64,000 bases of DNA, taken from the NCBI GenBank assembly GCA_964488165.1, contig CAZATU010000003.1, forward strand, positions 79,372 to 143,371. Reading direction: 5' to 3'. The notes under the pieces are model-generated. The model had not been told where the DNA came from. It worked only from the letters and a program-made list of their open reading frames with translations, and did not search any database. This document shows positions 14,509 to 64,000 of the stretch, one piece after another. The DNA is from an uncultured Candidatus Peribacteria bacterium. GTDB taxonomy: Bacteria; Patescibacteriota; Gracilibacteria; Peribacterales; Peribacteraceae. Made by a program: the position numbers and the translations under genes. Positions within the stretch are counted from its first letter, which is position 1. Every line of letters starts with the position of its first letter.

Positions 14509-14611
14509 TGCGCACCATTGTAGCAGCACTCACCCACGTTGCACGCCATTGCATTCGCACGCGACTCGCTGCCTGGTATGCTCTCCCTGTTCACACTCTT
14601 TTTTCCGCATC

Positions 14612-18957: not shown

Positions 18958-20880
18958 TTACCAGCTTCTCCAGGGCATCTCGATTTCATCGAGCGGAACG
19001 TCTTCGATAGATAACAGATGGCCGTCCTGCCCGCTTGCAGCCGGCGCCGGCTTGCGCTTGCGGATGCGCGCAATGACTAGAGAAAAGAGTGCCACCACTG
19101 TCAGGCCCGCAAGGCCTACAAGAAGAGGCTGCGGGTTGATCATGGAGAGCACGGAAGTCGACGGCGCGGCGTTGCGCATGAGCCCGCTGCCCGCCGAGGG
19201 CGGCTGCTGGCCATTCGCGGAGACCAAGACGACCTTCACGGCAATCTTGCAGCCGCTGCCGCAGTCGGTGCCACCGTCGCATTCTTCCTTGCCCTGGACG
19301 ATGCCGTCGCCGCAACGGGCCTTCCTGCACTCGTTCGTGCACATATCGTCGTTGATCGCGTTGGCGTCGTCGCATTCTTCCGCCAGCTGACGGATGCCGT
19401 CACCACAGAACACGGTGTGGCAGCCATTGGTACAGCCGTCGGTGTCGATCAGGTTGCCGTCATCGCAGTCTTCTCCGCGCTGAATAAATCCGTCGCCGCA
19501 CGACTGGAATTTGCAGAGCGCGGTGCAGGCGTCGGCGCTGCTTGTATTGCCGTCATCGCACTGTTCGCCCTGCTGCACGATGCCGTCGCCGCACGACGGG
19601 AGCTTGCAGGTATTGGTGCAGGCGTCGGTGTTCATTTGATTGCTATCGTCGCACTGTTCGCCCTGCTGCACGATGCCATCGCCGCACGCGGGGCTGCGGC
19701 AGGAATTGGAACAAATGTCCCCGTTGACGGCGTTGGCATCATCGCAATCTTCGCCGTATTGCACGATGCCGTCGCCGCAGGTCGGCGGGCGGCAGGCATT
19801 GCTGCACCCGTCATCGTTGATGCCGTTGCCGTCGTCGCACAGTTCCGGTGACTGCGTAAAGCCGTCGCCGCAGCCGGGTAAACGGCACGCAACGGTGCAG
19901 AGATCGGCGTTGTTCTCATTGCCGTCATCACACTGTTCGCCGTACTGGAGAATAGCGTCGCCGCAGCTGGGCATGGTGCAGTCGGCCGTGCAACCGTCAT
20001 TGGAGCTGCGATTGCCGTCGTCGCACTGTTCGCCGTACTGGAGGATGCCGTCGCCACACGCCGGACGCTTGCAGGCGTTGGTGCACATGTCCGCATCGAA
20101 TGTGTTTCCGTCGTCGCATTCCTCCCACGGCTGCAAAAAGCCATCGCTGCACCGCGAACTCAGGCAGAGAATCGTGCACGAGTCGGCACTGTTGCGGTTG
20201 CCGTCGTCGCATTCTTCGCCGCGATCGAGCTGGCCGTTGCCGCATTGAGGCGAATACTCGACGACATTCCCCTGCACTGCGGCTTGCTCCTGCGGACGTT
20301 GCACGGCTTGCGCCGCGGCGACCTGTGTTTGCTGTGTGCAGGCGGCGAGGAATTGCGACTCGCAGCCGCCGAAACAACCGTCGTCACCGCAGTCGGGTAC
20401 GGTGCAGATCTGGCCACATGCGGGCTGCTCCTTAAAGCGGAGCACGATGGCATTTTCATCGATTTCCTGGTCGTATTCACCGTACGCGTAATACTGCTGC
20501 GGTTCACAGGACTCGCCGATGGAAGGCGAAACGACGCCATCGCCGCAGAAGAGCTGGCGGCATTTGGCAGTGCAATCGCCGCTGCCGTTCCTGCCGAAGC
20601 CAGTGTCACACTCCTCCCCCTCCTCCATTTGGATCGTGGCGTCCCCGCAATGCGGCGGACGGGGAATGTCATCCTCGGAAAGCTGCACCGGGGGAGCAAG
20701 CTCCACGGGCGGACAGCCGGGCGTATTAATGGCAAGCCCGACGCATTCCATCTGGGCCGAGCCCATTGCGGCGAAGACGCTGAGCGTCACGCCGCCGAGG
20801 AGCACCAAGCTCACAACCGTGGACTGGCGCGATATGGCTCGGGAGGAAGTCATAAATCCAAGTAGTATAGCAAAGAACAT
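18958..20880 (-). CDS. Cys-rich-repeat type I membrane protein (11 tandem 31-aa repeats)
   Basis: Signal peptide, 11 repeats of CGDG.....E.CDD(G/A/S)N....D.C...C at exactly 31-aa spacing, then a TM helix (LLVGLAGLTVVALFSLVIA) and a ~45-aa cytoplasmic tail. Confidence 0.85.
   Translation of the reverse strand: MFFAILLGFMTSSRAISRQSTVVSLVLLGGVTLSVFAAMGSAQMECVGLAINTPGCPPVELAPPVQLSEDDIPRPPHCGDATIQMEEGEECDTGFGRNGSGDCTAKCRQLFCGDGVVSPSIGESCEPQQYYAYGEYDQEIDENAIVLRFKEQPACGQICTVPDCGDDGCFGGCESQFLAACTQQTQVAAAQAVQRPQEQAAVQGNVVEYSPQCGNGQLDRGEECDDGNRNSADSCTILCLSSRCSDGFLQPWEECDDGNTFDADMCTNACKRPACGDGILQYGEQCDDGNRSSNDGCTADCTMPSCGDAILQYGEQCDDGNENNADLCTVACRLPGCGDGFTQSPELCDDGNGINDDGCSNACRPPTCGDGIVQYGEDCDDANAVNGDICSNSCRSPACGDGIVQQGEQCDDSNQMNTDACTNTCKLPSCGDGIVQQGEQCDDGNTSSADACTALCKFQSCGDGFIQRGEDCDDGNLIDTDGCTNGCHTVFCGDGIRQLAEECDDANAINDDMCTNECRKARCGDGIVQGKEECDGGTDCGSGCKIAVKVVLVSANGQQPPSAGSGLMRNAAPSTSVLSMINPQPLLVGLAGLTVVALFSLVIARIRKRKPAPAASGQDGHLLSIEDVPLDEIEMPWRSW
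19246..20244 (-). repeat. 93-bp-period coding tandem repeat array (11 units)
   Basis: The first Cys of successive repeats falls at residues 213, 244, 275 ... 523 of the 640-aa protein, a strict 31-aa (93-nt) period. This is a coding repeat, not a CRISPR. Confidence 0.85.
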
Positions 20881-22535: not shown

Positions 22536-22630
22536 AGCCTACGGCAGCCGAAAGAAACGCGCTCGTGGAAATATTGCTGCAAAAAGGCATTTATGCTATA
22601 ATTCTCAGAACATTCCGAACATCCACACCC

Positions 22631-43881: not shown

Positions 43882-47727
<3,846 letters not shown>

Positions 47728-47825
47728 GAAACGCTTGGGGAAGAGGAAAAATGCACACATGCAAGCCGGTCGCCTCCTGGCCACGTTCGTCTCAAACGTG
47801 CGGAAAACGCCCGGTGAATGGGTCT

Positions 47826-47860: not shown

Positions 47861-50800
47861 TTACGCGAGTTCGTCGCGGGGGGGCATATCCGGCAGCGGA
47901 GGGCGGGTGCCCATGCGCGCCGTTCGGTCGCCTCCTTCCACGCCACTGCGGATCGCAGCGGGATCGAGGCCGGGCATTGTGCGCTTCACGGCTTCATCGG
48001 CAAGCACGTGGGCCTCGCCATACGTGTGTAGGGGCGAGCCATCGGGCTTCTTCTGGTCAAGGAAGTGCAGGAGGTAGAAGGAGTAGTACGAGCTTGCATC
48101 GCTCCAGTCGCCGCCCACTACGCCAGTAGCAATATTGGTGACGATCTCCTTGGTATGCACGATCATCGTGACGCGTCCGGTATGGGCGCTGGAAAGCTCG
48201 GTGTAGAGGTTGGTCCGGAGGTTCGCGGGGTCAAGACCACCGCTGTGGCAGGCGATGACGTCGAACGTGAAGCGGCAATCTGGGAAGGCATCTACAAGCC
48301 TGCCAACATCGGCGGGGCTTAAGGGGAACCGCGTTCTGCCGTCGGCGCTGGTAAACGACATACCCGTTGTGGAGCCGTGCACGCCAAGTGAAATGTAGAA
48401 ATCACGCACACCCTGGGCAGTCATGGCGCGCACACTCTCTTCCATCATCGCGTGAGGATCACGGTCGACGCCGCGCGCCGGCGCGCCGGAACTTACGAAC
48501 GTATGCCCACGGCCGGCGAGCATGCGCGGCATGTTCGTAATGTTGTTGCGAGTGATGTTCTGCTTGGCGTCGTAGAGGCCGATATAGCCAATGGGCCGAT
48601 CGCGAGGCAGGTCGAACGTGCGCATCCTTGCGCTGTCGGCGCGCTCGGAAGCGCGGATCGCCTCGCCACGACGCATGGCCTGCTCTACATCGGGCTTGAT
48701 GGCCGGGGTTCCGGTGGAAATATTGGTAAAGAGATCGCCCAAGTGCAGGCTGATCTGCGTCGACGGATCATCGGCGCGGCGCAACGTCACCTCGCTGCTA
48801 TCACCATCGTCGCCTCGGAGGTCCCAGGTGGAGAAGAGCCAACGCTGGGCAACGCCATCGACCGTGCGGGTAAACCCAAAGCATTCCCAGTCCGCTGCAC
48901 CAGCATTCTTGAATACCTCGATTGAGGTCGTGCCGCTGGTATAGCGCGGTGCGCGGGTGAAGCAGCGGTCGACGGATTGGTAGAAATTGAATTTGTCTTG
49001 GTTTGAGAGAGCCCTTCTGCGCAAAAGGAACAGCACCGAGCTGCGAGTATTGACTGAATTGGCTCCGCCTTCGGGCGTTTGCGTCGAGGCATCGTAGGTC
49101 ATCTGCCAGCCGCGGTAGCTCATGTGCACTTTGCGACCCTCGATGCGATGGCCCATGGTGCCCCAGGTGAGGGCATTAACGCGCTTGGCAAAGTCCTGGT
49201 CATCGGCGGAGGGGCCGATGGCATCGGCACCCGTCACATCGCCTGCGCTATACTCGGGAGGCCGCACCGGCGCAGTCTTCACGAATGTAAGCGCTCTACG
49301 TTGCTCGGCGGCAGGATCGGTAATGATCCTGTTGCCCTCTGCGGCACGATTACGAAGCAACGTACGCGACGTATCGTTGGCAGCAAGGGCGGTCAGCGCT
49401 GCGGGTGCTTCGAGCGTGTCGGCTACAGCAAGGCGCTGCTCCACCGTAGCGTTCTTGATGAGGTACGATGACCCGCTCGCCGGCACAATCGTGATGATGC
49501 CCATGAGTCGCGTTGCCGAGAACGGCGCAGGATCGGCATCGGGCAAGGCGATCGAACCGTTGGCTTGAATGGTGTAGCGCTTGGTTGTAGCGCCAACGGT
49601 GACATCGACAGTCACGGCTGCCGTCGCAGGATCGACTGAGAAGGTGGTTGCCCTGTTCTTGATGAGCCTTGGAGGCAAGCCCACAAGCGCTGCTGGGCGC
49701 ACGGCCTCAGGGGCGACATCGCGCGTCACGGCGGGGCTGCCGGCGGGCTGGAAGGTAAAGCGGCCGGGCGTGCGGGAGGTAAAGAGCACGGCGCCTCCTG
49801 CTCTACCGATGCTAAAGGGCAAAGTGGTGATATCCACGGCGCGGCCCCCCGTCTTGAGGCTGCCGTCTGCCAATACTTCATAGACAGTGGTCGTACCGTT
49901 GATGACTGCGGTAAAGGAGATCGGTGATGCGGGCGGCGCAACGCGGAATTCGTGGGTGCGGAAAATCGTCATCGCAGCCGGGAAGCCCTCGAAGCCGGCC
50001 GCTGGCGCGGTGGGCACGCGGTCGACTTCATCGCGGAACGCGCGCGCCGCAGCTTCGAGACGGTCTTTGACCGTGCTGTTCGGCTCGAGCACGTTGAACG
50101 AGCGCGTGGTGCCCCTGTAGGTAAGGGCGACGCTGCGGGGAGGCGTGATGGCAAAGGTCATGCCCGCGGGCAACACAGCGGAAGCCACTGCGGCTTCGAA
50201 GCTGCCGGGCGGGGCCTCTGGGGCGTTGAGCGAAATGCCCGCGGCGATGATGGCATTCGTGTAGGTCGTTTCGAGTGCGGCACCCGAATCAGGCTCCGCG
50301 CCCACGGGGGCCAGGTTGATATCGACGGTGCGGGTGACGCCCGTCTTGCTCATGCGGACAAGGGTGTAGCTCGGGTACGCCTTGGTGATGCTGCCCGGGA
50401 GCGTCACTCTCGACCATGCCCGCTCAAAGCCCCTGCGGCGCTGCAGCTCCCTTGCCGACATCGTGAGGAAGGGCGTGATGGCAACGGCGGTGGTGAGGCC
50501 GGGAGCAATCGGGACCGTGCGCGTGAGGCCGTCAAACGACAATGTCACATCGCGCCCGGCGACCGTCACGATCGAAACACCTGCGGGCAACACGATGCCG
50601 CGGACCATGGCTTCGAAGCCGGGAGCGGTTGTTTCTGCAATGGTACGACGTACGGTCTGCGTGCCGACCTGGAAGGCGAATGTGCCGTTTTGGGTGCAGG
50701 TGATGGTGAGGGCTCCATCGCGGCGGGTGACCGTGAACGGCGCGCCGCCCGCAGGAACGATGGCGCCCGCAGCGTTGATCACGAACGGCCGGGCATCCGC

Positions 50801-51628
50801 GCCTTCCCCAAAGATGATGGTCATGGGCGACGTGGGCGGCGTGACGGTGACGGTAAAAGCGGTGTTGCGCTCGATGCGCTCGGGGATGCCGCGCATGGCA
50901 TCGGGAGTCTCGGGCGAAGAGCCCGGCGTCTCGCCGCTGACAAAGCGCGCCACCTGGTCTTCTAAGTACCTGGCGACGGTGTCGGGACGCTGGCCGCTCA
51001 ATGGAATCACATGCGTGCGGCCGTTCAACTGCACCGTCACCTGCATGGTCTGGTCGTTGAGCAAGACGCCCATCTGCGGGTTGCGCAGCGTGAGGCTCGT
51101 CATGGTCGTGCGCACGTTCTGGAGGAGCAGCATGCGCTCCTGCCCGCCCTCGGGGGCGGAGCCGGGAGGCGTCATGCCCGGGTAGGGAGAGGCGCCGGGA
51201 GGCGCGTACCACATCCACGGGCTGGGGTAGGCGTAGCTCTGGTTGGCATACGGGTACATGCCCGACGTATCGAAGGTACCGTTGGGCCACGTACCGTTCA
51301 TCGCCGGATAGTTCTGCAGGTTGTAGACCATCCCGTAATAGTTCTGCTGGATGCCCTGCATCATGTTGGCGTACACGCCCTGCATCTGCGGCCACATCTG
51401 CTGCTGCATCTGCGGGTACTGGTTGAACATGGGCTGCATCCGGTGCGACATCTGCGCGAAGGTGTTGCACATCTGCAGGCAGAACGCGGCGAAGCCGTCG
51501 ACGTTGAGATCAAGCTGTTGGGGGGCTTCGGTCGTCTGCTGCACAGCCTCGGGAGGCGTGGGCACGGCACCGCTTTCCGGAGGAGCGGATTGCCACAGAA
51601 GCCGGCGTTCGGAGAAACGATGCGACAT
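47861..51628 (-). CDS. Giant protein, paralog 1: ERRLL N-motif, Q/M/Y/P low-complexity region, beta-rich repeats, C-terminal caspase-fold (metacaspase/orthocaspase-like) domain
   Basis: Start trimmed to MSHRFSERRLLWQS. The C-terminal region FYISLGVHGSTTG-(x34)-FTFDVIACHSGGL has His at 48377-48379 and Cys at 48248-48250. No signal peptide or TM. Confidence 0.85.
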   Translation of the reverse strand: MSHRFSERRLLWQSAPPESGAVPTPPEAVQQTTEAPQQLDLNVDGFAAFCLQMCNTFAQMSHRMQPMFNQYPQMQQQMWPQMQGVYANMMQGIQQNYYGMVYNLQNYPAMNGTWPNGTFDTSGMYPYANQSYAYPSPWMWYAPPGASPYPGMTPPGSAPEGGQERMLLLQNVRTTMTSLTLRNPQMGVLLNDQTMQVTVQLNGRTHVIPLSGQRPDTVARYLEDQVARFVSGETPGSSPETPDAMRGIPERIERNTAFTVTVTPPTSPMTIIFGEGADARPFVINAAGAIVPAGGAPFTVTRRDGALTITCTQNGTFAFQVGTQTVRRTIAETTAPGFEAMVRGIVLPAGVSIVTVAGRDVTLSFDGLTRTVPIAPGLTTAVAITPFLTMSARELQRRRGFERAWSRVTLPGSITKAYPSYTLVRMSKTGVTRTVDINLAPVGAEPDSGAALETTYTNAIIAAGISLNAPEAPPGSFEAAVASAVLPAGMTFAITPPRSVALTYRGTTRSFNVLEPNSTVKDRLEAAARAFRDEVDRVPTAPAAGFEGFPAAMTIFRTHEFRVAPPASPISFTAVINGTTTVYEVLADGSLKTGGRAVDITTLPFSIGRAGGAVLFTSRTPGRFTFQPAGSPAVTRDVAPEAVRPAALVGLPPRLIKNRATTFSVDPATAAVTVDVTVGATTKRYTIQANGSIALPDADPAPFSATRLMGIITIVPASGSSYLIKNATVEQRLAVADTLEAPAALTALAANDTSRTLLRNRAAEGNRIITDPAAEQRRALTFVKTAPVRPPEYSAGDVTGADAIGPSADDQDFAKRVNALTWGTMGHRIEGRKVHMSYRGWQMTYDASTQTPEGGANSVNTRSSVLFLLRRRALSNQDKFNFYQSVDRCFTRAPRYTSGTTSIEVFKNAGAADWECFGFTRTVDGVAQRWLFSTWDLRGDDGDSSEVTLRRADDPSTQISLHLGDLFTNISTGTPAIKPDVEQAMRRGEAIRASERADSARMRTFDLPRDRPIGYIGLYDAKQNITRNNITNMPRMLAGRGHTFVSSGAPARGVDRDPHAMMEESVRAMTAQGVRDFYISLGVHGSTTGMSFTSADGRTRFPLSPADVGRLVDAFPDCRFTFDVIACHSGGLDPANLRTNLYTELSSAHTGRVTMIVHTKEIVTNIATGVVGGDWSDASSYYSFYLLHFLDQKKPDGSPLHTYGEAHVLADEAVKRTMPGLDPAAIRSGVEGGDRTARMGTRPPLPDMPPRDELA

Positions 51629-51629
51629 G

Positions 51630-51905
51630 CTATGCGTCGAAATTGGGAAGCGGCTCACTCTGACGTTCCTGTTCTTCCTTGCAGCTGCGGCCGAGCTTCT
51701 CCCCTTTCTTCACGAGCTGGTCCATGGAATCGATCCCCTCTTGCACGACGCGTGCGTGCGCATCAAGACCATCACGGAGGAGCTGGGTGATGCTGATGCG
51801 ATCAATTTCCTTCAGACGATCGCTGGCATCGGCAAGCGCCTGACGCACCGGAGGCGGCAGGAGAGGCATGGCCAGCACGAAGGCGCGGAAGGTGGCGGAG
51901 TCCAT
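51630..51905 (-). CDS. Small helical protein (91 aa), partner of giant paralog 1
   Basis: MDSATFRAFVLAMPLLPPPVRQALADASDRL... The TAG stop lies 1 nt before the giant's ATG. Clear paralog of 54613..54894. Confidence 0.75.
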   Translation of the reverse strand: MDSATFRAFVLAMPLLPPPVRQALADASDRLKEIDRISITQLLRDGLDAHARVVQEGIDSMDQLVKKGEKLGRSCKEEQERQSEPLPNFDA

Positions 51906-51979: not shown

Positions 51980-54616
51980 TTACGCGCTTGCGCCGGGCGA
52001 GATGCCCGGAGGCAGAGGAGGATGCGCATCGGAGCGCGCCGTGCGCTCGCCGCCTGCAACACCGCTGCGGATGACCGCCGGATCAAGACCAGGCAACGTC
52101 CTTTTGATCGCCTCGTCAGCCAGGAGATGCGCTTCGCCATACGTATACAGAGGAGAGCCATCGGGCTTTTTCTGATCGAGGTAATGCAAGAGGAAGAACG
52201 TGTAGAACGACGTAGCATCGCTCCAATCGCGTCCGCCATTGCGAATCCCGGTGGCGATATTATTGACGATTTGCTTCGTGTGGACGAACACGGTCACGCG
52301 CCCGGCGTGCGCACTGGAAAGCTCGGTATAGAGGTTCGTACCAAGATTTGGCGCATCCAGGCCGCCGGTATGGCAAGCGATAACATCGAAAGTGAAGCGA
52401 CAATCCGGATGCGCATCCACCAGCGTGCCAATCTGCTCGGGCGTGAGCGGATAGCGCTCCGAGCCGTCCCTGAACGCCATACCCGTCATGGAGCCATGGA
52501 CCCCGAGGGAAATATAGAAATCATGCACTCCGCTGCGATACAGTTCCGTCACCCGCTCTTCCATCATGGCCAACGGAGCGCGGTTCACGGGCGTGGCGAC
52601 GTCGCCGGATGTCACGAACGTATGCCCTCTGCTCGCGAGCATGCGCGGCATATCGGTCATCGTGTTCTTCGTCATATTCTCATTGCGATCATAGAGTCCG
52701 ATATACCCAATGGGCCGATCGCGCGGGAGCTCGAACGTGCGTATCCGTGCGGCATCGGCCCGCTCCGAAGCACGGATTGCCTCCGCACGACGCATGGCTT
52801 GCTCCACTTCGGCCTTAATGGCCGGCATTCCAGCCTCAATGTTGGTGAACATGTTCTGGAGCTCCACATTGATTTGCGTCGAGGGATCATCGGCGCGACG
52901 CAGTGTGATACTGCCTTCGACGCCTTGCGCACTGCGCGTTGTAAATACGGAAGCGAACCAGCGCTGTGTGACGCCATTGACGGTGCGGGTACATCCGAAA
53001 TGCTCCCAGTCATTCGCCTTGGCATCCTTGAAGACTTCGACGGTCGTGCCAGCGTCGCTCCATCGCGTTGCCCCTGTGAAGCAGCGATCAAGCGATTGGT
53101 AATAATCGAATTTCTCCTGCGTTCCCAAGGATCTGCCACGAGCAATGAAGAGGGCATCAAGCTCCTCTCTGACCAGTGCTGCCGCGGCTGCAGGCGTTTT
53201 GCCTGCCGTGTCACACGTTCGCATCCAACCTCGGTAGCTCATATGAACAAGGCGCCCTTCAATGCGATGCTTCATCGTACTTCCCCATGGCAACGCATTC
53301 ACGAGCTTTCCAAATTCCTGATCGGCAGCTGAGTCGCCTATGGCATCGGCGCCCGTAACATCGCCTTCGCGATATTCGTCAAGCACGAAGGGCTTCTTTC
53401 GCTGCAAGCGAAAGAGATCCTGCTGATCGAAGAGTGGCTTGGTGAGCAGCTGATCGCCCCGCTGCGCTCGCAACCTCAGCGCATCACGCGATTCTTGATT
53501 GGCTGTAAGGAGCGTGAGGCCCTTTGGCACGACGACAGTATCGGCAACGGCAATACGCGACTCCGCCGCGCCGTTCTTCAACGCATACAATGTACCGCTC
53601 TTCGGCGTGATCGTGATCGCGCCCAGCAGACGGGTGACAGTGAATGGCGCAAGAGTGTCATCAGGGGTGGCGATCGTACCGTTTGCCTGGATTGCATAGC
53701 GCTTGGTGGCGTCACCATCGGTGACATCGACCGTGACGGGCGCATCGGCCGGATCGATGGAGAACGTGCTCGGCTGGTTCCTGATGAAACGCGACGGCAA
53801 AGCAACGAATGCCGACGGACGACGAGGCTCCGGAGCAACGTCACGCGTAATGGGAGCTTCTGCACCGGAGCGGAACGTAAAACGCCCGGCGACGCGCGAT
53901 GCAAACGCTACGGCGCCTCCGGCGCGACCCAGGCTGAACGGCAATGCTGCAATATCCACTGCCTTGCCACCCGTCTTGAGTAGGCCATCGGCACCAAGGT
54001 CGTAGACGGTGCTGACGCCGCCGATGAGCGTCGTGCATGCCAGTGGCGCAGCAGCAGGCACCATGCGGAACGTGGATGCTCCGAAGATCCTCATCGCTTC
54101 AGGAAAATCCTCAAAGCCTCCGGAAGGAGCATCTGCAACGCGCTCCGGCTCACCTTTCGTCTGCACAGCGCCATCTGCGTCCGCGCCAACCGCAGACGTG
54201 CCGCCCGGCGACGGCGTATACCACGTCTCCGGCTGTGGGTAGGCGTCGCTCTGGCCACCATGAGGATATGTACTCGCCGAGCTGACGACATCGTTGGGCC
54301 AGGCGCCGTTCATGGCGGAGTACTTCTGGATTGCCTGAAGCATCCCGTCATAGTTCTGCTCAATGCCCTCCGTCATGGTGGCGTAGACCCCCTGGATCTG
54401 CGGCCAGAGCTGCTGCTGCATAGCCTCGGGATAGCGCTTGAACATAGGCTCGAATGCATGTGTGGCCTGCGAAAACGTGTTCACAAGCTCCGGAGAGGAA
54501 TCTCCGGCATCCTGCATGGCGGCCGGCATTCCTTCAGGAGTGGCGGCAGGCTCGCGTGCCTGTTCGGGGTTGGTAGCCTGGTTCAGAAGCCGTCGTTCGC
54601 GAAGGCTCGCGATCAT
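51980..54616 (-). CDS. Giant protein, paralog 2 (same architecture, shorter repeat region)
   Basis: MIASLRERRLLNQA..., ...FYISLGVHGSMTG-(x34)-FTFDVIACHTGGL (Cys at 52373-52375). Collinear with paralog 1 over its C-terminal ~700 aa. Confidence 0.85.
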   Translation of the reverse strand: MIASLRERRLLNQATNPEQAREPAATPEGMPAAMQDAGDSSPELVNTFSQATHAFEPMFKRYPEAMQQQLWPQIQGVYATMTEGIEQNYDGMLQAIQKYSAMNGAWPNDVVSSASTYPHGGQSDAYPQPETWYTPSPGGTSAVGADADGAVQTKGEPERVADAPSGGFEDFPEAMRIFGASTFRMVPAAAPLACTTLIGGVSTVYDLGADGLLKTGGKAVDIAALPFSLGRAGGAVAFASRVAGRFTFRSGAEAPITRDVAPEPRRPSAFVALPSRFIRNQPSTFSIDPADAPVTVDVTDGDATKRYAIQANGTIATPDDTLAPFTVTRLLGAITITPKSGTLYALKNGAAESRIAVADTVVVPKGLTLLTANQESRDALRLRAQRGDQLLTKPLFDQQDLFRLQRKKPFVLDEYREGDVTGADAIGDSAADQEFGKLVNALPWGSTMKHRIEGRLVHMSYRGWMRTCDTAGKTPAAAAALVREELDALFIARGRSLGTQEKFDYYQSLDRCFTGATRWSDAGTTVEVFKDAKANDWEHFGCTRTVNGVTQRWFASVFTTRSAQGVEGSITLRRADDPSTQINVELQNMFTNIEAGMPAIKAEVEQAMRRAEAIRASERADAARIRTFELPRDRPIGYIGLYDRNENMTKNTMTDMPRMLASRGHTFVTSGDVATPVNRAPLAMMEERVTELYRSGVHDFYISLGVHGSMTGMAFRDGSERYPLTPEQIGTLVDAHPDCRFTFDVIACHTGGLDAPNLGTNLYTELSSAHAGRVTVFVHTKQIVNNIATGIRNGGRDWSDATSFYTFFLLHYLDQKKPDGSPLYTYGEAHLLADEAIKRTLPGLDPAVIRSGVAGGERTARSDAHPPLPPGISPGASA

Positions 54617-54894
54617 GCGGCGGAAGAAAAGTCGGGTAGAGCTTCCGACGAACGCTCGCTCTGCTCATCCAATGCACGCATCATTTTGCCGCCCTTCTTC
54701 ACGAGCTCTTCGATCTGCCTGATGCCCTCATGCAGCAGGCTTGCATGTTGTTCCAGTCCTTTGCGCAGAATCCGGACGATGGCGATGCGATCAGACTCCT
54801 GAAAACGCTCACCGGCGTCTGCGAGCGCCTCACGTACCGCGGGCGGCAGCAAGGGCATGGCGAGCACGTACGCGCGGAAGCTGGCGAGATCCAT
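54613..54894 (-). CDS. Small helical protein (93 aa), partner of giant paralog 2
   Basis: MDLASFRAYVLAMPLLPPAVREALADAGERF... ATGA overlap with the giant's start. Confidence 0.75.
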   Translation of the reverse strand: MDLASFRAYVLAMPLLPPAVREALADAGERFQESDRIAIVRILRKGLEQHASLLHEGIRQIEELVKKGGKMMRALDEQSERSSEALPDFSSAA

Positions 54895-57236: not shown

Positions 57237-58355
57237 TCACGCTTTGGCCGCCTTGATCATGGCCAGAAATTCGTCGAAGAGGAACGCGGCATCCTCGGGT
57301 CCAGGAGAGGCTTCGGGGTGGAACTGCACGGCGCGGAAACGATCGCTCTCGTGGCGAATACCTTCCACCGTGCCGTCATTGGCGTTACGGAACCACACCG
57401 ACCAGCCCTTGGGCAGCTCTTCATTGACGGCGAAGCCGTGGTTTTGCGAGGTGATGAGGCAGCGCTTGGACGGAACGCAGACGCCTTCGCGACACTCGTG
57501 CATGAGACACGGTTGGTTGGCTCCGCGATGGCCGTACTTCAACTTGTAGGTGTCGCTGCCGATGGCCAACGCCATCAGCTGGTTGCCTAGGCAAATACCG
57601 AAGGTGGGGATGTCGCGCTCGATCGCCCGCTTGATGGAGCGAATCGTGGGCACGCATTGCTTCGGGTCTCCGGGCCCGTTGCTGATGAAGACGCCGTCGA
57701 TGGCGCCGACGTGCTTGTCGATGTCGTAATCCCAGGGGACACGGACGATGCGCGCGCCGCGCTTGAGCAAGCTGCGGAGAATGTTGCGCTTCATGCCGCA
57801 GTCGTAGGCAAGGATCGTGGGGGCGTCGGGCAAATTGCCGGGGGGTTCGTACGTCAGCACTTCGCCGCAGCTCACTTCAGCGACAAGGTTCTGCAGATTT
57901 GGATCGGGCACCGTGCCGAGCACGGCATCGTCCTTCTGTGCGATGCGCCCGAGCATCACCCCATGCTCGCGGAGCCGCTTGGTGAGCGCACGGGTATCGA
58001 CGCCGGAAATGCCGGGGATCTTGTGGTGTTCGAGCCAGTTGTGGAGGGAGCTCACCGACGCTTGGTGGCTCTTGAAGCGGCTCTCCTGAGCAACGACAAC
58101 GCCGCGCACGTGCACGGCCTCGCTTTCGAGCAACGCGGAAAACCCTCGCGCATCACGCTCCTCGCTCGGGATGCCGTAGTTGCCGATGAGTGGAAACGTG
58201 AACACGAGGATCTGCCCGCGGAAGCTGGGGTCCGTGAGGCTTTCGGGGTACCCCACCATGTTCGTCGTAAAAACCACCTCGCCATGGGCATCGTTTTCGG
58301 CACCGAATGATGCACCGGAATACGTCGTGCCGTCATGCAGGAGAAGCTTCGCCAT
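57237..58355 (-). CDS. carA: Carbamoyl-phosphate synthase small (glutaminase) subunit
   Basis: ...PTFGICLGNQLMALA...HRGANQP...SQNHGFAV...VQFHPEASPGP. Start trimmed to MAKLLLHDG. Confidence 0.92.
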   Translation of the reverse strand: MAKLLLHDGTTYSGASFGAENDAHGEVVFTTNMVGYPESLTDPSFRGQILVFTFPLIGNYGIPSEERDARGFSALLESEAVHVRGVVVAQESRFKSHQASVSSLHNWLEHHKIPGISGVDTRALTKRLREHGVMLGRIAQKDDAVLGTVPDPNLQNLVAEVSCGEVLTYEPPGNLPDAPTILAYDCGMKRNILRSLLKRGARIVRVPWDYDIDKHVGAIDGVFISNGPGDPKQCVPTIRSIKRAIERDIPTFGICLGNQLMALAIGSDTYKLKYGHRGANQPCLMHECREGVCVPSKRCLITSQNHGFAVNEELPKGWSVWFRNANDGTVEGIRHESDRFRAVQFHPEASPGPEDAAFLFDEFLAMIKAAKA

Positions 58356-58414
58356 GGTGCAAATCTGCAGCATGGTAGCGTCGCCACTCGAGGATGACCA
58401 AGCATTTCCGGTGT

Positions 58415-60532
58415 TTACACCACGTCGGAGCCAGCAGACAGACCGTCAGGGCGGAAGCTCGCCGTTTCGACGCCGCCGGTGGGTGTGGTGCGGAAGACGC
58501 CGGCGTCGAGGCCGGGCCACGCGCGTTTGGTGGCTTCGTCGGCGGCGACATGAGCCTGGCCGTACGTCATGCCCTGGTTCAAGAAATGCACGAGGTAGTA
58601 GTCGTAGGGCGTATCGAAGTTGCGGCTGCGGCTGCCGTCGGGGTTCCTCGTTCTGCTGTCGGTGGTCCGGATGGGGTTCGGGAGCTCGGGCTTGGTCTGG
58701 ATGAAGACGCTGATGCGTCCGGACTCTCCGGCAGCTCGGAATTGCTCCGCCATGCGCCCGCTTTGGAAACCGCCGCTGTTGCAGCAGTTCATGCGCAGCA
58801 CGAAGCGGCAATCGTTGTACTTGCTCTTCTTGAACAAGTTCATGAGCTGGCTCGGCTCCAAATCAATCCTGCCTCCGCCGGGGATACCAAATCCTACACT
58901 CGTAGTATCGCCGTGGACGGAGAAATACAGATAGTGATTCTTGATACCGGCGCGGTAGGCAGCATCGAAACGCGACTCGAGGGTGCCAAGCAAGTCCCTA
59001 CCCGCGGCAAAGGTGTCGTTGCCGCCGCCAACCATGTTGTAGCCACGGCTGCCGAGGAATGAGCCGAAGTTGCGGGCATGGTTCTCCTCGGTGGGATCGG
59101 TCTGATCGAAGACACCCGTGTAGAGGATCGACTCGCCACGCGGGAGATCGAAGTTCCGGACGTTTGCGGCGTCGTTGGTCTCGCTCGCGCGGCGTTTGCG
59201 CGCAACTTGCAATGCTTCCTTGATGGCAGAGCCGTTAAGACCGGGTGATGCCAAGAAGGTTCTCGTAAGACCTGCAGCCTGCATGAGCATATCTGAGGCA
59301 TTCTGGAACACGATATTTTGTTCCATGACATGGTTGGTGACGGCCGCTGCAACGTACCAACGTTCGGTCGTACCACCATGATTGACTTCGATAGCGTACC
59401 TGCGGCCATGCTCCGGAGGATTGACGCGCTTGAGCGTGACACCATCGGAAGTACGATCGATACTGGCATCCAATCTGGTCCGAACACTGGAATCGTAGTC
59501 ATTGGCCATTTGCCGGTACACCGAGTTCGGATCTTCGGCAGTGGTACGCACCCAATCGAGACGTGTTTGAATGAAGGACCGTGCCGTCTCGGAATATTCG
59601 ACGCGATTGTAACCGGCACCTGGCGCGACGTCGGGGCCGCGCGGCATTGCGCCAGGCGGCGTTACTCCGGGGCTTGCCGAACCCGACACGGTAATGTCCT
59701 GCCACTGGTAGGGGTTGCGCTCCATTTGATCCTTCCAGCCCACGGAGAAAAGCCCCGGCCGGGTGAATTCGAAGCGGAATGTATGGATATCGCCGAAACG
59801 CGTGGGGCGCACGCGCACGCCGGCCGCCGCTAGAAGCGCGTTGCCGTTTGCCGGCTCCACACTGAGCGTGCGGCTGTTCACGTACACCGATTGCTGCACG
59901 CCACCGGTGCCCGGGAGTTTGACGGCAACAAGGGAGGTGGCATTCAGAATTTCCGTGGAAGCGAGCACGCCGCCGGGCGTCACCTCGGGAGCGCCGGGGG
60001 GTGGACCATAGGGAGGCGCATACGGGTTCGACGGCGGGCCACCATACGGCGCATACGGGTTCGACGGCGGGCCGGATTGCGACGAAGAGCCGGGTCTCCT
60101 GGGCCGCTGGGGGACTCGGCGGCCACCAGGAATGAAAGGCGAATTCGAAGGGTCGGACTGCGGCATGCCGTTGTAATACGGCGGCATGTACTGCGCGTAG
60201 GGATTCGCCTGCTGGCCGTATTGGCCGTAGTACATGTGGGGATATTGCTGGTTGCCCTGCTGCATGCCCGGGTAGCCACTCATCCCCTGCTGCTGCATGA
60301 ACATGTACATCGAGGCATCCACACCCTGGGAGCCGTACTGCTGATACACATTCTGGTAGCCGGGTGAGGCATAGAACTGATTCACGTATTTGAGCGCTTC
60401 CTGGACGCCGGATTCGATGTCGCGCGGCGTTTCACCGGCTCCCTCGGGGGGCGTCGGTCTGTTCTCGGGAGCGGCATGCTGCGCAAGCAGGCGACGTTCC
60501 GCGGCCGTCGAGAAAGCGATGCGGTGGTTCAT
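58415..60532 (-). CDS. Giant protein, paralog 3 (divergent): ERRLL N-motif, Q/Y/G/M/P low-complexity region, C-terminal caspase-fold domain
   Basis: Start trimmed to MNHRIAFSTAAERRLLAQH. ...HYLYFSVHGDTTSVG-(x32)-RFVLRMNCCNSGG (Cys codons at 58781-58786). It shares NFDLPRG... and YGQAHVAADEATKRAWPGLD with paralogs 1 and 2. Confidence 0.8.
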   Translation of the reverse strand: MNHRIAFSTAAERRLLAQHAAPENRPTPPEGAGETPRDIESGVQEALKYVNQFYASPGYQNVYQQYGSQGVDASMYMFMQQQGMSGYPGMQQGNQQYPHMYYGQYGQQANPYAQYMPPYYNGMPQSDPSNSPFIPGGRRVPQRPRRPGSSSQSGPPSNPYAPYGGPPSNPYAPPYGPPPGAPEVTPGGVLASTEILNATSLVAVKLPGTGGVQQSVYVNSRTLSVEPANGNALLAAAGVRVRPTRFGDIHTFRFEFTRPGLFSVGWKDQMERNPYQWQDITVSGSASPGVTPPGAMPRGPDVAPGAGYNRVEYSETARSFIQTRLDWVRTTAEDPNSVYRQMANDYDSSVRTRLDASIDRTSDGVTLKRVNPPEHGRRYAIEVNHGGTTERWYVAAAVTNHVMEQNIVFQNASDMLMQAAGLTRTFLASPGLNGSAIKEALQVARKRRASETNDAANVRNFDLPRGESILYTGVFDQTDPTEENHARNFGSFLGSRGYNMVGGGNDTFAAGRDLLGTLESRFDAAYRAGIKNHYLYFSVHGDTTSVGFGIPGGGRIDLEPSQLMNLFKKSKYNDCRFVLRMNCCNSGGFQSGRMAEQFRAAGESGRISVFIQTKPELPNPIRTTDSRTRNPDGSRSRNFDTPYDYYLVHFLNQGMTYGQAHVAADEATKRAWPGLDAGVFRTTPTGGVETASFRPDGLSAGSDVV

Positions 60533-60885
60533 ACAGACATGCGGGAAGAAGCGGCGTCGGCACCCAGAAGTTCGTCGGCCATTTTGAGCTGCCACACCCG
60601 CTCCCCTTCTTCTTTCGTGACGCGATCATTGCGCCGGTGCGTCTGGATTTCCTGCGCCTGCACATAGAGATAGCCGCTGAATTCCTTGAGCAGATCGCCG
60701 AACGTGCGGAAGGCCCTCCCGTAACGCTCCATACGCAGCCCGTGCTCCTCGGCCGTTTCACCTTTGTACTCCATGTCGAGGTACGGTAAACGGGCGCTGG
60801 TGAGCTCCGGCTCAATCACCGACATGAATCGGTCGTAAATCCACTCCGGGGGAGGCAAGCCTTGTGGGTTTGGTGTGGAAGGCAT
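60529..60885 (-). CDS. Small protein (118 aa), partner of giant paralog 3
   Basis: ATGA overlap with the giant's start. At most a weak resemblance of its charged C-terminal part to the 91/93-aa partners. Confidence 0.65.
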   Translation of the reverse strand: MPSTPNPQGLPPPEWIYDRFMSVIEPELTSARLPYLDMEYKGETAEEHGLRMERYGRAFRTFGDLLKEFSGYLYVQAQEIQTHRRNDRVTKEEGERVWQLKMADELLGADAASSRMSV

Positions 60886-60914
60886 CGGCGAGGAATGGCG
60901 TATGTGTTATGTAT

Positions 60915-60943
60915 ATTATACTTTTTTTACCCCAGAAAATCAA
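60915..60943 (-). promoter_or_regulatory. Sigma70-like promoter candidate, module 3
   Basis: Minus strand: TTGATT (60943-60938), 17-nt spacer, TATAAT (60920-60915). 29-nt leader to ATG 60885. Confidence 0.55.
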
Positions 60944-61791
60944 GCATCCGACGCCAGGTGCTGGGCACGATCCCACAGCGACTGCATGAGCGCGGAGCGG
61001 CGATTGCGCTCCTCTTCGGTGAGCGAAGACCATTCCTCCGGGGATGACCAGCGTTCGAGCAGCGTTTTGAGTGACTGCGCCTGCCGCAGGGCGGCCATGG
61101 AAGCTTGGTCGCTCTTGCCGGTGAACTGCTCCTGGATGGTGCCGACCACCTCGGCCGCCTTGCCCGCCGGCGCGAAGCCGGTCTGGCGGATCTGCGGGGC
61201 AAACTGCATGCCCGAAGCAGTCGACGACGGCTGTATCTGGGGCTGCGCAGGAAGACCGCCCGTAGGCTGAGCAGCCAGCTGCTGGGCGCGAAACGGCGGC
61301 GAAAGCAGGGCAAGCAACTCCTCCGGCACCACGCACCCCGCTTGGAGGCACAGGCCTTGGCAGCTCATGGAAAATTGCGTCAGCAATGCGAGGCGGCGCT
61401 CAAGATGCTCCACAGCATCGCGTCGCATGTCGAGGAAGATCTGGGGGGTGGGCGCCTGCAGAGCGCTCTCCCAATCGGGCTCGGGGATATCGCTCTGGAG
61501 TAGCGGATCGAGGGTGGCGAAGGCAGCGGCCGCGAGAGGCTGTGCGGCAACCGCGATGTCGCGCAATGTGTCGCGCGCCATAGCGAGCAGGTTCGCCCAC
61601 TGGTTCATGCCTTCGTTGAGACGGCGCCAGCTTTCCTGGAGACCAGCAATGCGGCGGCGCAACACGTCAGGCGTCTGTTCTGCGGCGGCAGCAGTGGCAT
61701 CCTTCTGTGAGAACAAGGCCTCAAACGCATCGCGCACCGAGGGGAGCGAAGCGGAGAGCGTCATGCCGGAAGCGGTCGGTGTGGAGGGCAT
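60940..61791 (-). CDS. Hypothetical helical protein (283 aa)
   Basis: Long ORF with non-mirror composition, lying between the transglutaminase-like gene and module 3. No motif recognised. Confidence 0.65.
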   Translation of the reverse strand: MPSTPTASGMTLSASLPSVRDAFEALFSQKDATAAAAEQTPDVLRRRIAGLQESWRRLNEGMNQWANLLAMARDTLRDIAVAAQPLAAAAFATLDPLLQSDIPEPDWESALQAPTPQIFLDMRRDAVEHLERRLALLTQFSMSCQGLCLQAGCVVPEELLALLSPPFRAQQLAAQPTGGLPAQPQIQPSSTASGMQFAPQIRQTGFAPAGKAAEVVGTIQEQFTGKSDQASMAALRQAQSLKTLLERWSSPEEWSSLTEEERNRRSALMQSLWDRAQHLASDA

Positions 61792-61797
61792 GGTCGT

Positions 61798-63999
61798 TTA
61801 TTGGAAATAGGGCGGATATCCGCCTGGGCCGGGAGGCAGGATGCCTTCCGGCGAGCCGCTGGGAGTGCCCGGGTACCCGCCGTAGGGCGAGGTTCCCGGC
61901 AGCATGCCCGGCGGATACTGCCCCGGAGCACCGGGGAAGTTGCCATAGGACGGCGGGCCTGAAGGACGCATACCACCGTAGGGCAGAGTGCCCGGAATCA
62001 CGCGCGGCGCACCGGGCCGGGTGCCGTAGGGTGCCATGCCCGGACCCATGCCGGGGTAGCCGCTGGGTCCTTGCGGCATACCCGGATAGCCGGGCCGCCC
62101 CTGGGGCATACCAGGCATCCCGGGCATACCGCCGTAGGAGGGTGGGCGCGGCGCGGACATGCCGCCGCCACGATTGTGGACGATCTGGTTCCAATCGAAA
62201 TCCCCGAAACCGATGAACGCATGTTGGGCGTTGCCGCCCTGAATGGTATTGGTGACGATGGCCGAGATGCCGCCGCCGCGTGCAGCCACCTCGCGGGCGC
62301 GACCCTGCGCTTCGGGCGGCATGCCCTGGGTACTGGTGAGTTCCCAGTCGACGCCGCTGCGACCGCCGCCGCTCCAGATGGATTGCATGGCTTCGGCAGG
62401 ATTGCGATAGACGCGCGGCACTCGTTGGAACCCGCCGGTGTCGATCTTGCAGAGGATGTATCCCCCGTTCGACGAACGTTCCAGATAGGCGCACACGTAG
62501 TGACCGGGGGTGGCGCGAGCGACGATGTTGCTGATGCCCGCGGCATCCAGAAGGCTGCTCGCGAGCACGGCGAAGTCCTCGCAGTCGCCGGTGGCGCGCA
62601 TGAGCGATTCTTCGGCCGACTGGATGTACTGCTGGCCCGCAGCCTCCGCTTCGAAGTTCACGGTGGAAGCCGTACGAATGCGGTTGCCGGTGCGCGTGAT
62701 GCTGTCTTCGACGGTGAAGTACGATGACACGAACGCGCCGATCGCCTCGGGCGAACCAAGCTGTCGACCCATTTGCTGGAGCATCTGGCGTGCATGATCC
62801 GGGCTCTGCGGACGTTGATTGAGAGACACGGGGCCACCTTCGCCGACGACGTGCATGCCGTGAGGAAGCTGGATCGGGGCGCCTGTGCCGTCGGCACCGG
62901 CGGACACGGACGCCTGCTGGCCGTTGATGCGCACGAGCGCGGGGCGATCGGTGCGGCCGTCGTAGAACACGGTCGCCACAGGGGTGGAACTGCCGTTAAA
63001 GATTTCGCGCACGGTGCGGCCGTCCTGCAGCTCCACGACGCGCGCACTGCCGCCGGGGCCCTGGATGCGGAATTCATCGCCGCGCGCAGTGGTGCCCCAG
63101 GTGACCTGACTTCCATCGGAGCCCTGCCAGGAGCCGCTGCCGACGCGGACGGGTCCGCGGCCGACGAGCGTCTGCGTCCGCGTGACGACCACCGCCTGGC
63201 CCGACGCACCCTCCGCCCAGATGCGCATGCCGTCACTCATGACGCGCATGGGGCCCATCGACTGGATCGCCATGGTGAGGCGTTGTGCCATGTTCTGGAG
63301 CTCCGCGCCGTGCTCCGCGAGGCGGGACGGCGGAATGTTGTGGCGCAGATGGAACGTGCCGCTCACGCCTTGCACCTCGATGCGCTGCCCAGCGACGGAG
63401 AGTTGCTGAAGGACATTCATGATGTACTGACCGTTGAGCTGCTGCTCCTGTGCGTCCCACTCCACGCTCACGTTGGTATTCGAGGGCGTCGGGCCCATGT
63501 TGGGTGGAGCTCCGTACGGAGCTCCCGGAACTCGGCCCATCTGCGGATATCCGCCCTGGTACATGCCGGGACGGTTGATGTTCACCTGCGGCATGTTGCC
63601 CCAGGCGCTCGGAAGGCCGGGGTACATGCCGGGATTCAATGCATGCGCGTACGGGCGGGCAGGGGCCAGGTACGGGCTACCCGGCTGCGGAAACTGGAAC
63701 TGCCGTCCGTAGTTCATCTGCTGGAAGCGCACCTGCGGAGGCACGCCGTGGTTGGAGGTGACGTGATGCATGGGGCCGCCGGGCCGGTGCGAGCTGAAGA
63801 GCTGCGGCGCGCCGCCGTTGAATGACTGAATCGCAAAGCGCTGGTCGGGGCTGCCCCACACCGGTCCGCTCGCCTGGTGCGGAATGGCCGACGGCCAGCC
63901 GCCAAGCTGCGGTTGCGACGGCATGCCCGGCATGACGAAGGGCGACGTGCGCATGGTCGTTGGGCCCATCTGGGGGCCCATCTGCGACCAGGAGTTCAT
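61798..63999 (-). CDS. P/G/Y/M/Q-rich protein with transglutaminase-like Cys-His-Asp core (may extend beyond window end)
   Basis: ...MRATGDCEDFAVLASSLLDAAGISNIVARATPGHYVCAYLERSSNGGYILCKIDTGG. Cys at 62581-62583, His at 62500-62502, Asp at 62440-62442. Flanked by GMPGMPGMPQGRPGYPGMPQG...GGYPPYFQ and an N-terminal P/Q/G/M-rich region. The ATG at 63997-63999 is 1 nt from the window edge. Confidence 0.8.
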   Translation of the reverse strand: MNSWSQMGPQMGPTTMRTSPFVMPGMPSQPQLGGWPSAIPHQASGPVWGSPDQRFAIQSFNGGAPQLFSSHRPGGPMHHVTSNHGVPPQVRFQQMNYGRQFQFPQPGSPYLAPARPYAHALNPGMYPGLPSAWGNMPQVNINRPGMYQGGYPQMGRVPGAPYGAPPNMGPTPSNTNVSVEWDAQEQQLNGQYIMNVLQQLSVAGQRIEVQGVSGTFHLRHNIPPSRLAEHGAELQNMAQRLTMAIQSMGPMRVMSDGMRIWAEGASGQAVVVTRTQTLVGRGPVRVGSGSWQGSDGSQVTWGTTARGDEFRIQGPGGSARVVELQDGRTVREIFNGSSTPVATVFYDGRTDRPALVRINGQQASVSAGADGTGAPIQLPHGMHVVGEGGPVSLNQRPQSPDHARQMLQQMGRQLGSPEAIGAFVSSYFTVEDSITRTGNRIRTASTVNFEAEAAGQQYIQSAEESLMRATGDCEDFAVLASSLLDAAGISNIVARATPGHYVCAYLERSSNGGYILCKIDTGGFQRVPRVYRNPAEAMQSIWSGGGRSGVDWELTSTQGMPPEAQGRAREVAARGGGISAIVTNTIQGGNAQHAFIGFGDFDWNQIVHNRGGGMSAPRPPSYGGMPGMPGMPQGRPGYPGMPQGPSGYPGMGPGMAPYGTRPGAPRVIPGTLPYGGMRPSGPPSYGNFPGAPGQYPPGMLPGTSPYGGYPGTPSGSPEGILPPGPGGYPPYFQ

Positions 64000-64000
64000 A

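Follow-up and report, generated by a model that had tools for sequence, protein, structure and literature searches.

A 64,000-nucleotide stretch of contig CAZATU010000003.1 from an uncultured Candidatus Peribacteria bacterium (hereafter the window) carries a minus-strand run of genes whose products join charge-poor tracts, rich in Gln, Met, aromatic residues, Pro, and Gly, to peptidase-fold domains. The proteins are three paralogs with a common C-terminal domain of ~280 residues and a transglutaminase-like (TGase-like) protein encoded nearby. We read the tracts as selected, lineage-specific association and spacer modules on proteins that are probably exported, and we put the probability of this reading at about 0.4. 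The related contigs come from metagenome-assembled genomes of Candidatus Peribacteraceae or Peregrinibacteria, members of the candidate phyla radiation (CPR); the G+C content of the window is ~62%.

The tracts stand out from the other proteins encoded in the window. The initial annotation of this DNA had reported eukaryote-style prion-like regions in four neighboring proteins, and the peptides it quoted are encoded, that of paralog 1 at 51149-51466 on the minus strand and those of paralog 3 and the TGase-like protein within their open reading frames. Three of the four proteins are strongly biased: the maximal fraction of Gln, Asn, Met, Tyr, Pro, and Gly over 60 residues is 0.77 in paralog 1, 0.83 in paralog 3, and 0.78 in the TGase-like protein, with 2-7% charged residues, whereas the homologous region of paralog 2 shows only a mild bias (0.50, 10% charged). 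The other ~45 open reading frames of at least 90 residues in the window peak at 0.22-0.45; in this part of the genome, the charge-poor tracts are atypical. At a background of 0.246, the binomial tail per 60-residue stretch is 1e-17 to 1e-21 and stays negligible after correction for 20,000 stretches; the analysis covered 64 kb of the genome and a few related contigs, and a bias of the whole proteome would escape it. Aromatic residues make up 14-16% and charged residues 4-7% of the paralog tracts, while Met accounts for 5-17% and Pro for 12-26% of the tracts overall, from which Lys is nearly missing. Counting a 673-residue protein just past the window end, at least five proteins within ~20 kb share this Met/Gln/Gly/Pro/Tyr style, a clustering at one locus that is unusual for bacteria. 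That such regions are rare in bacteria, though known, agrees with published frequencies, which per bacterial protein are 0.0015 for N/Q-rich disordered proteins and 0.0038 for prion predictions, with sporadic conservation (Harrison 2019, PMC6400439). The 283-residue helical protein of the locus holds a Q/P-rich stretch of its own (…AAQPTGGLPAQPQIQPSSTASGMQFAPQIRQTGFAPAG…).

The tracts evolve as if constrained. Relative to the ortholog on a syntenic contig (L010), residues 51-143 of paralog 1 are 72% identical and conserved position by position, with a ratio of nonsynonymous to synonymous substitution rates (dN/dS) of 0.18, compared with 27% identity and a dN/dS of 0.80 for the linker (residues 21-50) and 53-76% identity and a dN/dS of 0.09-0.30 for the downstream folded parts; dS is saturated (~1) in this comparison, which makes the paralog 1 ratios rough. 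In the comparison of strains, the paralog 3 tract has a dN/dS of 0.12 and the remainder of that protein 0.136, while the TGase-like tracts have 0.078. Judged from these ratios, the tracts are under purifying selection, with dN/dS as low as that of folded domains. The paralog 1 tract has an aligned counterpart in paralog 2 that is less biased and partly charged. In the AlphaFold2 model of paralog 2, the homologous region comprises two helices at residues 43-100, with a predicted local distance difference test score (pLDDT) of 51-64, and a stretch at residues 101-182 with pLDDT 26-33, after which confident β and clan-CD domains follow; the helix prediction is of low confidence and draws on three sequences in that region. 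Generic low complexity is therefore a poor description of the paralog 1 tract, which is conserved by position, under purifying selection, and, with low confidence, predicted to be half helical.

Length change among relatives brings in a non-adaptive explanation, in which replication slippage and mutational bias produced low-complexity sequence that is tolerated but unused. Indels between strains and species do coincide with repeats. In the Pro/Gly/Tyr tail of paralog 1, the L010 ortholog has 31 additional residues of PPGY[AR]PP-type repeats. In paralog 3, perfect 26-nt copies at 60015-60040 and 60048-60073, offset by 33 nt, form the sole perfect tandem repeat, and the sister strain (contig L011) has a single copy of the 33-nt unit, equivalent to an 11-residue deletion; the duplication is of the minisatellite rather than the microsatellite type. 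For the Pro-Gly-Met tail of the TGase-like protein, a near-microsatellite of possibly variable length had been proposed. Tandem Repeats Finder detects 3.1 copies of a 9-nt unit at 78% match there (62104-62131), other repeats are 62-77% identical, and the sister strain has a tail of the same length, with two amino-acid changes and no indel. The microsatellite proposal is therefore not borne out; between strains, length differs in the copy number of the paralog 3 unit but not in the Pro-Gly-Met tail. Non-adaptive growth would also suit the G+C content of the Pro/Gly tails (0.70-0.82), the many homologs of both the clan-CD and the TGase-like families that have no tracts, and the sporadic conservation of prion-like regions in bacteria (PMC6400439). 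However, the DNA encoding the Gln/Met/Tyr parts lies below the window average (G+C 0.575-0.588 vs 0.616), so GC pressure fails to explain them, tract dN/dS of 0.08-0.18 contrasts with ~0.8 in the neighboring linker, and within one subfamily the tracts reappear at a fixed place in the architecture. We consider non-adaptive growth unlikely for the tracts as a whole; for the Pro/Gly/Tyr tails alone, it is plausible.

Positions 59100-64000 of the window show a mosaic divergence from the sister strain. The TGase-like gene is 99.5% identical, and the genes for the 283-residue protein, the small protein encoded upstream of paralog 3, and paralog 3 itself are 85-95% identical. Ten of the 11 differences in the TGase-like gene fall in its tract-coding ends (dS 0.034 vs 0.0033 in the core). 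This pattern could reflect recombination, locally raised mutation, or an assembly effect of mixed strains.

By the Michelitsch-Weissman criterion, a Q/N-rich region contains at least 30 Gln plus Asn within 80 consecutive residues. All of the tracts fall short of this classical threshold, with maxima of 25 (paralog 1), 23 (paralog 3), 19 (TGase-like), and 14 (paralog 2), against 38 for the Sup35N control. The aromatic and charged composition of the paralog tracts fits that of sticker-and-spacer, FUS-family prion-like domains. A provisional PAPA-like score, computed with propensities attributed to Toombs et al. 2010 and no FoldIndex step, is 0.196 for paralog 1 and 0.170 for paralog 3 at a cut-off of 0.05, compared with 0.09 for a Sup35N sequence; the positive values of the two paralogs are due to Met and aromatic residues. 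The TGase-like tail scores low and is too rich in Pro (26%) and Gly (25%) to count as prion-like. The tracts are therefore no textbook prion domains, and the eukaryote-style prion-like label is one of analogy.

The C-terminal domain of the paralogs is, according to its predicted structure, a caspase/legumain (clan CD) fold. The AlphaFold2 model (69 sequences) has a pLDDT of 87.8 and a predicted template modeling score of 0.87, and Foldseek matches it at probability 1.0 (E 8.6e-8 to 1e-4, TM-score ~0.5) to caspase-11, CED-3, legumain, caspase-8/9, SAVED-CHAT, and GPI8, a result repeated with paralog 2. Across the 69 sequences, His109-Gly110 is invariant and Cys152 is at least 90% conserved. Hydrophobic strands precede both members of the dyad (101-107 then YISLGV-HG; 144-150 then FDVIA-C), which is the clan-CD signature, and the caspase-fold assignment of the initial annotation is upheld. 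No family in Pfam or NCBIfam (E up to 0.1) or in PADLOC matches the domain, nor do the described clan-CD families C11, C13, C14, C25, C50, and C80. Sequence profile searches of the PDB returned nothing with one alignment (A2) and, at best, metacaspase-4 with another (A3; E 0.037). An exhaustive profile search recovered 191 representative clusters at E up to 1e-3, 31 of them at E up to 1e-30, with the clan-CD domain always C-terminal, behind N-terminal regions of widely differing length. This search was needed to find the family: a word-indexed protein search returned, for the full paralogs, only the query itself and, for the C-terminal domain, only three close relatives. A genome scan yielded one locus and a metagenome scan five. 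The domain therefore defines a new clan-CD family not covered by Pfam, NCBIfam, or PADLOC, and it is not a metacaspase domain. A phage origin was dropped for want of matches in viral contigs or GenBank phages, and PADLOC gave no indication of a known defense system.

Type I metacaspases with Gln/Pro-rich prodomains include yeast Mca1/Yca1 and plant AtMC1, and the tracts had been likened to these prodomains. On that model, the tracts would be metacaspase-style prodomains or true prion-like switches, with regulated aggregation or amyloid formation by the Gln-rich tract controlling the clan-CD peptidase through zymogen clustering or recruitment to aggregates, as has been proposed for yeast Mca1. 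The clan-CD fold and its intact His/Cys dyad are what such a switch would need, the provisional PAPA-like scores of paralogs 1 and 3 are positive, and the closest PDB sequence to the family profile is, weakly, a metacaspase. The likeness does not survive closer inspection, however. There is no Peptidase_C14 match, the Gln plus Asn counts (25 and 23 per 80 residues) stay below 30, and 250-800 residues of other domains separate tract and peptidase. In paralog 1 the tract ends at residue 172 and the clan-CD domain begins at 976, in paralog 3 the corresponding residues are 194 and 436, and β-rich domains lie between, so the tract is not a prodomain next to p20. In paralog 2, whose architecture is the same, the counterpart of the tract is charged and unbiased, and relatives with signal peptides argue for an extracytoplasmic family. 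We regard a prion-like switch as very unlikely; the metacaspase parallel is one of analogy, not homology.

The paralogs also share a leader within their first 45 residues, approximately M-x-x-x-F...E-[RKH]-R-L-[LIV]...P-[ED], in which ERRLL is invariant among the three in the window. Among 123 complete family representatives, the leader occurs in 17 (strict pattern) to 27 (loose pattern). A Sec-type signal peptide, called heuristically, occurs in 12, and none combines it with the strict ERRLL leader. All six of the complete representatives with at least 50% Gln, Asn, Met, Tyr, and Trp over 50 residues are ERRLL-type, with the tract at approximately residues 40-170 (Fisher p 2.9e-6, uncorrected for relatedness).

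The leader is accompanied by an upstream partner gene, whose small, acidic, helical product has the pattern W/L-Y-D..M..IEP[DE]L...GET...RM..Y. Each of the three partner genes in the window abuts or overlaps a paralog start, those of paralogs 2 and 3 by 4 nt, while that of paralog 1 is adjacent. An overlap of 1-4 nt is likewise found for P0010, P0013, P0029, P0007, and one of two cassettes on contig L009; in the other L009 cassette and in that of L011, the partner lies upstream across a short gap. Altogether, the cassette of leader and partner is also seen in contigs L003, L004, L009, L011, L012, and L013. ERRLL-type P0139 has no partner gene, and no same-strand gene precedes the signal-peptide-type members P0034 and P0035. 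Neither leader nor partner matches any family in Pfam, NCBIfam, or PADLOC, and a PDB search with the partner gave nothing above threshold. The second L009 cassette encodes a coiled-coil protein that lacks the clan-CD domain, which indicates that leader and partner form a module independent of the peptidase.

Several further observations concern the leader and its carriers. The 91- and 93-residue partners give sub-threshold phasin-type matches (PF05597, E 5e-5; TIGR01837, E 1e-4; NF047773, E 0.05), and the N-terminal region of paralog 1 gives a faint PhaE match (E 0.095); although there are several, these probably reflect a resemblance between amphipathic helices. A reading of 'SERRLL' as a twin-arginine translocation motif was rejected because the sequence that follows contains no hydrophobic h-region. 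Metacaspases, clostripain, and gingipain R are Arg-specific; were the new family so too, the Arg-Arg of the leader might be a cleavage site, which is pure conjecture by analogy. The 673-residue protein, encoded in the sister strain just past the right end of the window (L011:526-2547), is a coiled-coil protein: its start is ERRLL-like (SLREKRMAHQTPTPE), its C-terminal region is rich in M/G/P/Y (…MGMMPMMRPGGGGF…GYGYGRVGPMGG…PMMGPPMMGPMMGPGPMPF…), and a partner gene of its own lies upstream (L011:2-505). Two ERRLL-type members from metagenomes carry Q/M-rich tracts with long additions: P0139, with >150 residues of KPKEPEKEKPKD repeats and a hydrophobic, transmembrane-like segment before the tract, and P0029, with ~150 residues of PAPAPVPP.

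Leader and partner suggest another explanation, in which the tract would be the unfolded part of a non-Sec substrate that binds a chaperone or is competent for translocation; the partner would keep it soluble, and its composition would matter only for being unfolded and uncharged. The tract does sit right behind a conserved leader, Q/M-rich tracts are confined to ERRLL-type members, the partner gene is conserved and translationally coupled, leaderless family members carry Sec signal peptides, and positions 25697-28177 encode a coupling protein of the VirD4/TrwB type. On the other hand, L009 has ERRLL-type members with a canonical partner and no Q/M-rich tract, so the partner more likely reads the leader. 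The TGase-like and 673-residue proteins bear tracts C-terminally or without a leader, the locus has no linked secretion system, and the positional conservation of paralog 1 goes beyond what an unfolded spacer needs. A role confined to export thus appears unlikely to us.

The TGase-like protein belongs to a different family. Its Gly501-Asp-Cys503-Glu-Asp-Phe-Ala507 motif and His530 are invariant in ten homologs, in keeping with the Cys-His-Asp order; the Asp, in 'IDTGG', is shared by the five closest homologs but not by the five distant ones. Profile scores stay below their cut-offs, DUF553 reaching 18 bits of the required 20.5 and Transglut_core 16 of 23, the Peptidase_C93 match is also weak, and profile searches give weak matches to the LapG structures 4fgo (E 0.003) and 4u65. 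The C-terminal tail is missing in eight of nine homologs, with P0157 having a P/S/A tail instead. The closest homologs, P0155 and P0156, have a partial N-terminal M/Q/P/W-rich region and no C-terminal tail, and distant homologs have neither. Since Gln- and Pro-rich proteins are classical transglutaminase substrates, the Gln-rich tracts could be acyl donors for this adjacent enzyme, whose core with its conserved Cys-His(-Asp) is encoded in the same cluster, and the product would be a cross-linked surface matrix. Yet its nearest solved relatives are LapG-type BTLCP proteases (4fgo, 4u65), not cross-linkers, the Pfam matches are sub-threshold, and the tracts are nearly free of Lys. Cross-linking of this kind is extremely unlikely.

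From the composition, fold, conservation, indels, and leader/partner association described above, we infer self- or hetero-association, export, and peptidase activity, and we favor a tract with two parts. The first would be an uncharged Gln/Met/aromatic segment, position-constrained and probably weakly helical or conditionally ordered, which may act as a 'sticker'-type interaction module that binds itself, other tract proteins, a common partner, or a matrix. The second would be a disordered Pro/Gly/Tyr spacer that gains and loses repeats and may hold the β-rich and peptidase domains off the N-terminus. The ERRLL leader, which the tract directly follows in the clan-CD paralogs, and the coupled acidic helical partner would constitute an adaptor or chaperone arrangement that replaces the Sec signal peptide of the relatives. 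The most likely place of action of the proteins would be the cell surface or elsewhere outside the cytoplasm; export is indirectly suggested by the mutual exclusion of Sec signals and ERRLL leaders in relatives, the β-rich middle domains, and the chaperone-like partner.

Several results weigh against this picture of association and export. Signal peptides, transmembrane segments, and known sorting motifs are all absent from the tract proteins of the window. Most clan-CD family members are without Q/M/Y/P/G tracts, similar regions occurring in a minority that includes P0010, P0013, P0029, P0139, P0007, and P0015, and many homologs of both families manage without them. By the criterion of the initial annotation, homologs that lack the tracts while keeping everything else would argue against a functional role; the outcome is mixed, since many homologs do lack them, but in one subfamily the tracts reappear at a fixed position and are maintained by selection. 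E/K-rich or P/A-rich regions take this position in other ERRLL-type members, so the conserved feature may be just a spacer with lineage-dependent composition. No linear motif is common to the tracts: sharing of 3-mers and 4-mers is within shuffle expectation, and 'YPGM' stands out post hoc only. The TGase-like protein, with tracts at both ends, has no ERRLL leader and no adjacent partner gene. The saturated dS of the paralog 1 comparison and the low confidence of the helix prediction count on the same side.

A bolder proposal extends the favored reading to an undescribed, CPR-centered system. The ERRLL leader, the small partner, and, in Peribacteria, a sticky Gln/Met/aromatic segment would jointly mark modular proteins for non-Sec export or surface assembly, the marked proteins being new clan-CD peptidases, coiled-coil proteins, and a LapG-like peptidase. 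The tracts would co-assemble into a structure resembling a condensate or a matrix, for instance where the cell touches a host, with the Arg-Arg of the leader as a possible clan-CD processing site. We hold this to be quite unlikely in its entirety.

The features of the locus are collected in Table 1. The gene run that carries the tracts adjoins rpoC (43882-47784) and carA (57237-58373). Paralog 1 comprises, in order, the ERRLL leader, a linker, the Q/M/aromatic tract, the Pro/Gly/Tyr tail, repeated β-rich modules, and the C-terminal clan-CD domain. Paralogs 1 and 2 are tandem duplicates with 60% identity, and an insertion of ~380 residues of repeated β-rich modules follows the paralog 1 tract (alignment columns 201-570); on L010, the gene in the paralog 2 position is closer to paralog 1. 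Envelope genes nearby encode an S41 peptidase and a 1021-residue protein with S-layer homology (SLH) domains, two DUF4215 Cys-rich repeat proteins (one with nine repeats), and PMT-type O-mannosyltransferases. The TrwB/VirD4-type coupling-protein domains, of a kind found in type IV secretion systems (T4SS), belong to an 826-residue protein ~20 kb from the locus. Within the window, nothing ties either the SLH-domain proteins or the VirD4-like coupling protein to the tract locus.

Table 1. Features of the tract locus and nearby envelope genes, in window positions.
Feature	Position	Strand	Remarks
Paralog 1	47861-51628	-	1255 aa from NCBI Met
Paralog 1 clan-CD (predicted caspase/legumain-fold) domain	47864-48703	-	His in GVHGS 48371-48385; Cys in IACHSGG 48236-48256
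Paralog 1 whole tract	51113-51487	-	aa 48-172; boundaries set here
Paralog 1 Q/M/Y/W/N-rich segment	51200-51478	-	aa 51-143; sequence-conserved
Paralog 1 Pro/Gly/Tyr tail	51134-51199	-	aa 144-165; length differs among species; G+C 0.82
ERRLL leader motif, paralog 1	51596-51610	-	also 54584-54598 (paralog 2), 60485-60499 (paralog 3)
91-aa partner gene, upstream of paralog 1	51630-51905	-	divergent member of partner family
Paralog 2	51980-54616	-	878 aa; architecture of paralog 1 minus ~380-aa insertion
Paralog 2 homologous N-terminal region	54200-54490	-	mild bias only
93-aa partner gene	54613-54894	-	4-nt overlap with paralog 2 start; divergent
Paralog 3	58415-60532	-	705 aa from MNHRIAF
Paralog 3 clan-CD domain (predicted)	58418-59227	-	His 58907-58921; Cys 58769-58789
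Paralog 3 low-complexity tract	59951-60412	-	aa 41-194; Q/Y/M/G-rich first, then P/Y/S/N-rich
Paralog 3 33-nt tandem duplication	60005-60073	-	GPPSNPYAP(P)YG x2; copy number strain-dependent
118-aa partner gene	60529-60885	-	canonical type (W-Y-D...IEP[DE]L...GET...RM..Y); stop overlaps paralog 3 start (ATGA)
283-aa helical protein	60940-61791	-	between TGase-like gene and paralog 3 partner; kept in L011
TGase-like / BTLCP-like gene	61798-63999	-	runs past window end; full 763 aa (P0154)
TGase-like core motifs	GDCEDFA 62569-62589; His 62491-62508; Asp 62431-62448	-	
TGase-like C-terminal P/G/M/Y tail	61801-62199	-	133 aa; 26% P, 25% G
TGase-like N-terminal M/Q/P/G/W-rich region	63415-63999	-	30 more M/Q-rich residues beyond window (P0154)
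Envelope genes, as grouped	1845-3485, 22565-25630, 12706-14529, 18958-20880, 4908-6494, 8623-10449		

For the uncultivated bacteria of the CPR, most lineage-specific proteins are without annotation; a search of the literature on CPR bacteria or Peregrinibacteria for prion-like or caspase proteins found nothing relevant. Against this background, the locus yields a new predicted clan-CD (caspase-fold) family of 191 clusters and a recurrent cassette of leader and partner that could be a targeting signal. It also offers, as is rare in bacteria, tracts of prion-like appearance that can be shown to evolve under purifying selection rather than by compositional drift. Should they mediate assembly, the tracts would be the counterpart, in bacteria and probably outside the cytoplasm, of the sticker-and-spacer domains of eukaryotes. 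Even if they do not, the label of a metacaspase with a prion prodomain, tempting but unsupported, is corrected here.

Comparison with known systems places the tract proteins near several of them without merging them with any. Like the candidate prion domains of bacteria, such as that of C. botulinum Rho (PMC6400439; Pallares et al. 2016, PMC4703818), the tracts are rare Q-rich regions added to conserved proteins; here, however, several occur at one locus, are attached to peptidase folds, belong to a CPR genome, and are rich in Met and aromatic residues rather than dominated by Asn and Gln. With the type I metacaspases, the paralogs share a predicted clan-CD His/Cys fold and an uncharged N-terminal Q/P/Y/G tract. 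They differ in showing no homology to the Peptidase_C14 hidden Markov model, in the remoteness of the tract from the catalytic domain, in having no LSD1-type zinc finger that we could see, and in their ERRLL leader and partner gene, with relatives that bear Sec signal peptides. Sup35 N and FUS-like domains are likewise charge-poor and rich in aromatic residues plus Q/N/G/P, and the paralog 3 sequence YQQYG...QQGNQQYP...YGQYGQQANPYAQY recalls the Sup35 oligopeptide repeats in style. In contrast to these domains, the tracts have fewer than 30 Gln plus Asn per 80 residues and high Met and Pro, and that of paralog 1 is conserved by position rather than by composition alone.

The Met-rich low-complexity domain of yeast Pbp1/ataxin-2 is reportedly self-associating, partly helical, and uncharged (Kato et al. 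2019). The tracts are similarly uncharged, Met-rich, and predicted to be partly helical, but there is no homology, and the context is bacterial and probably extracytoplasmic. For the TGase-like protein, the nearest comparison is with LapG-type BTLCPs (Peptidase C93), with which it shares the G-D-C-E-D-F-A motif, a downstream His, and weak matches to 4fgo/4u65, DUF553, Transglut_core, and Peptidase_C93; the matches are sub-cut-off, and the protein differs in its length of ~760 residues, its large extra domains, its tracts at both ends, and the absence of a signal peptide. The LXG-Lap pairs of type VIIb secretion systems (T7SSb) and the chaperones of type III secretion systems (T3SS) and T4SS also feature a small, acidic, helical upstream partner that is translationally coupled, together with a conserved N-terminal element and a variable C-terminal domain. 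The cassette has no sequence or family relationship to these pairs and no secretion machinery linked to its locus, and its likeness to them would be one of arrangement.

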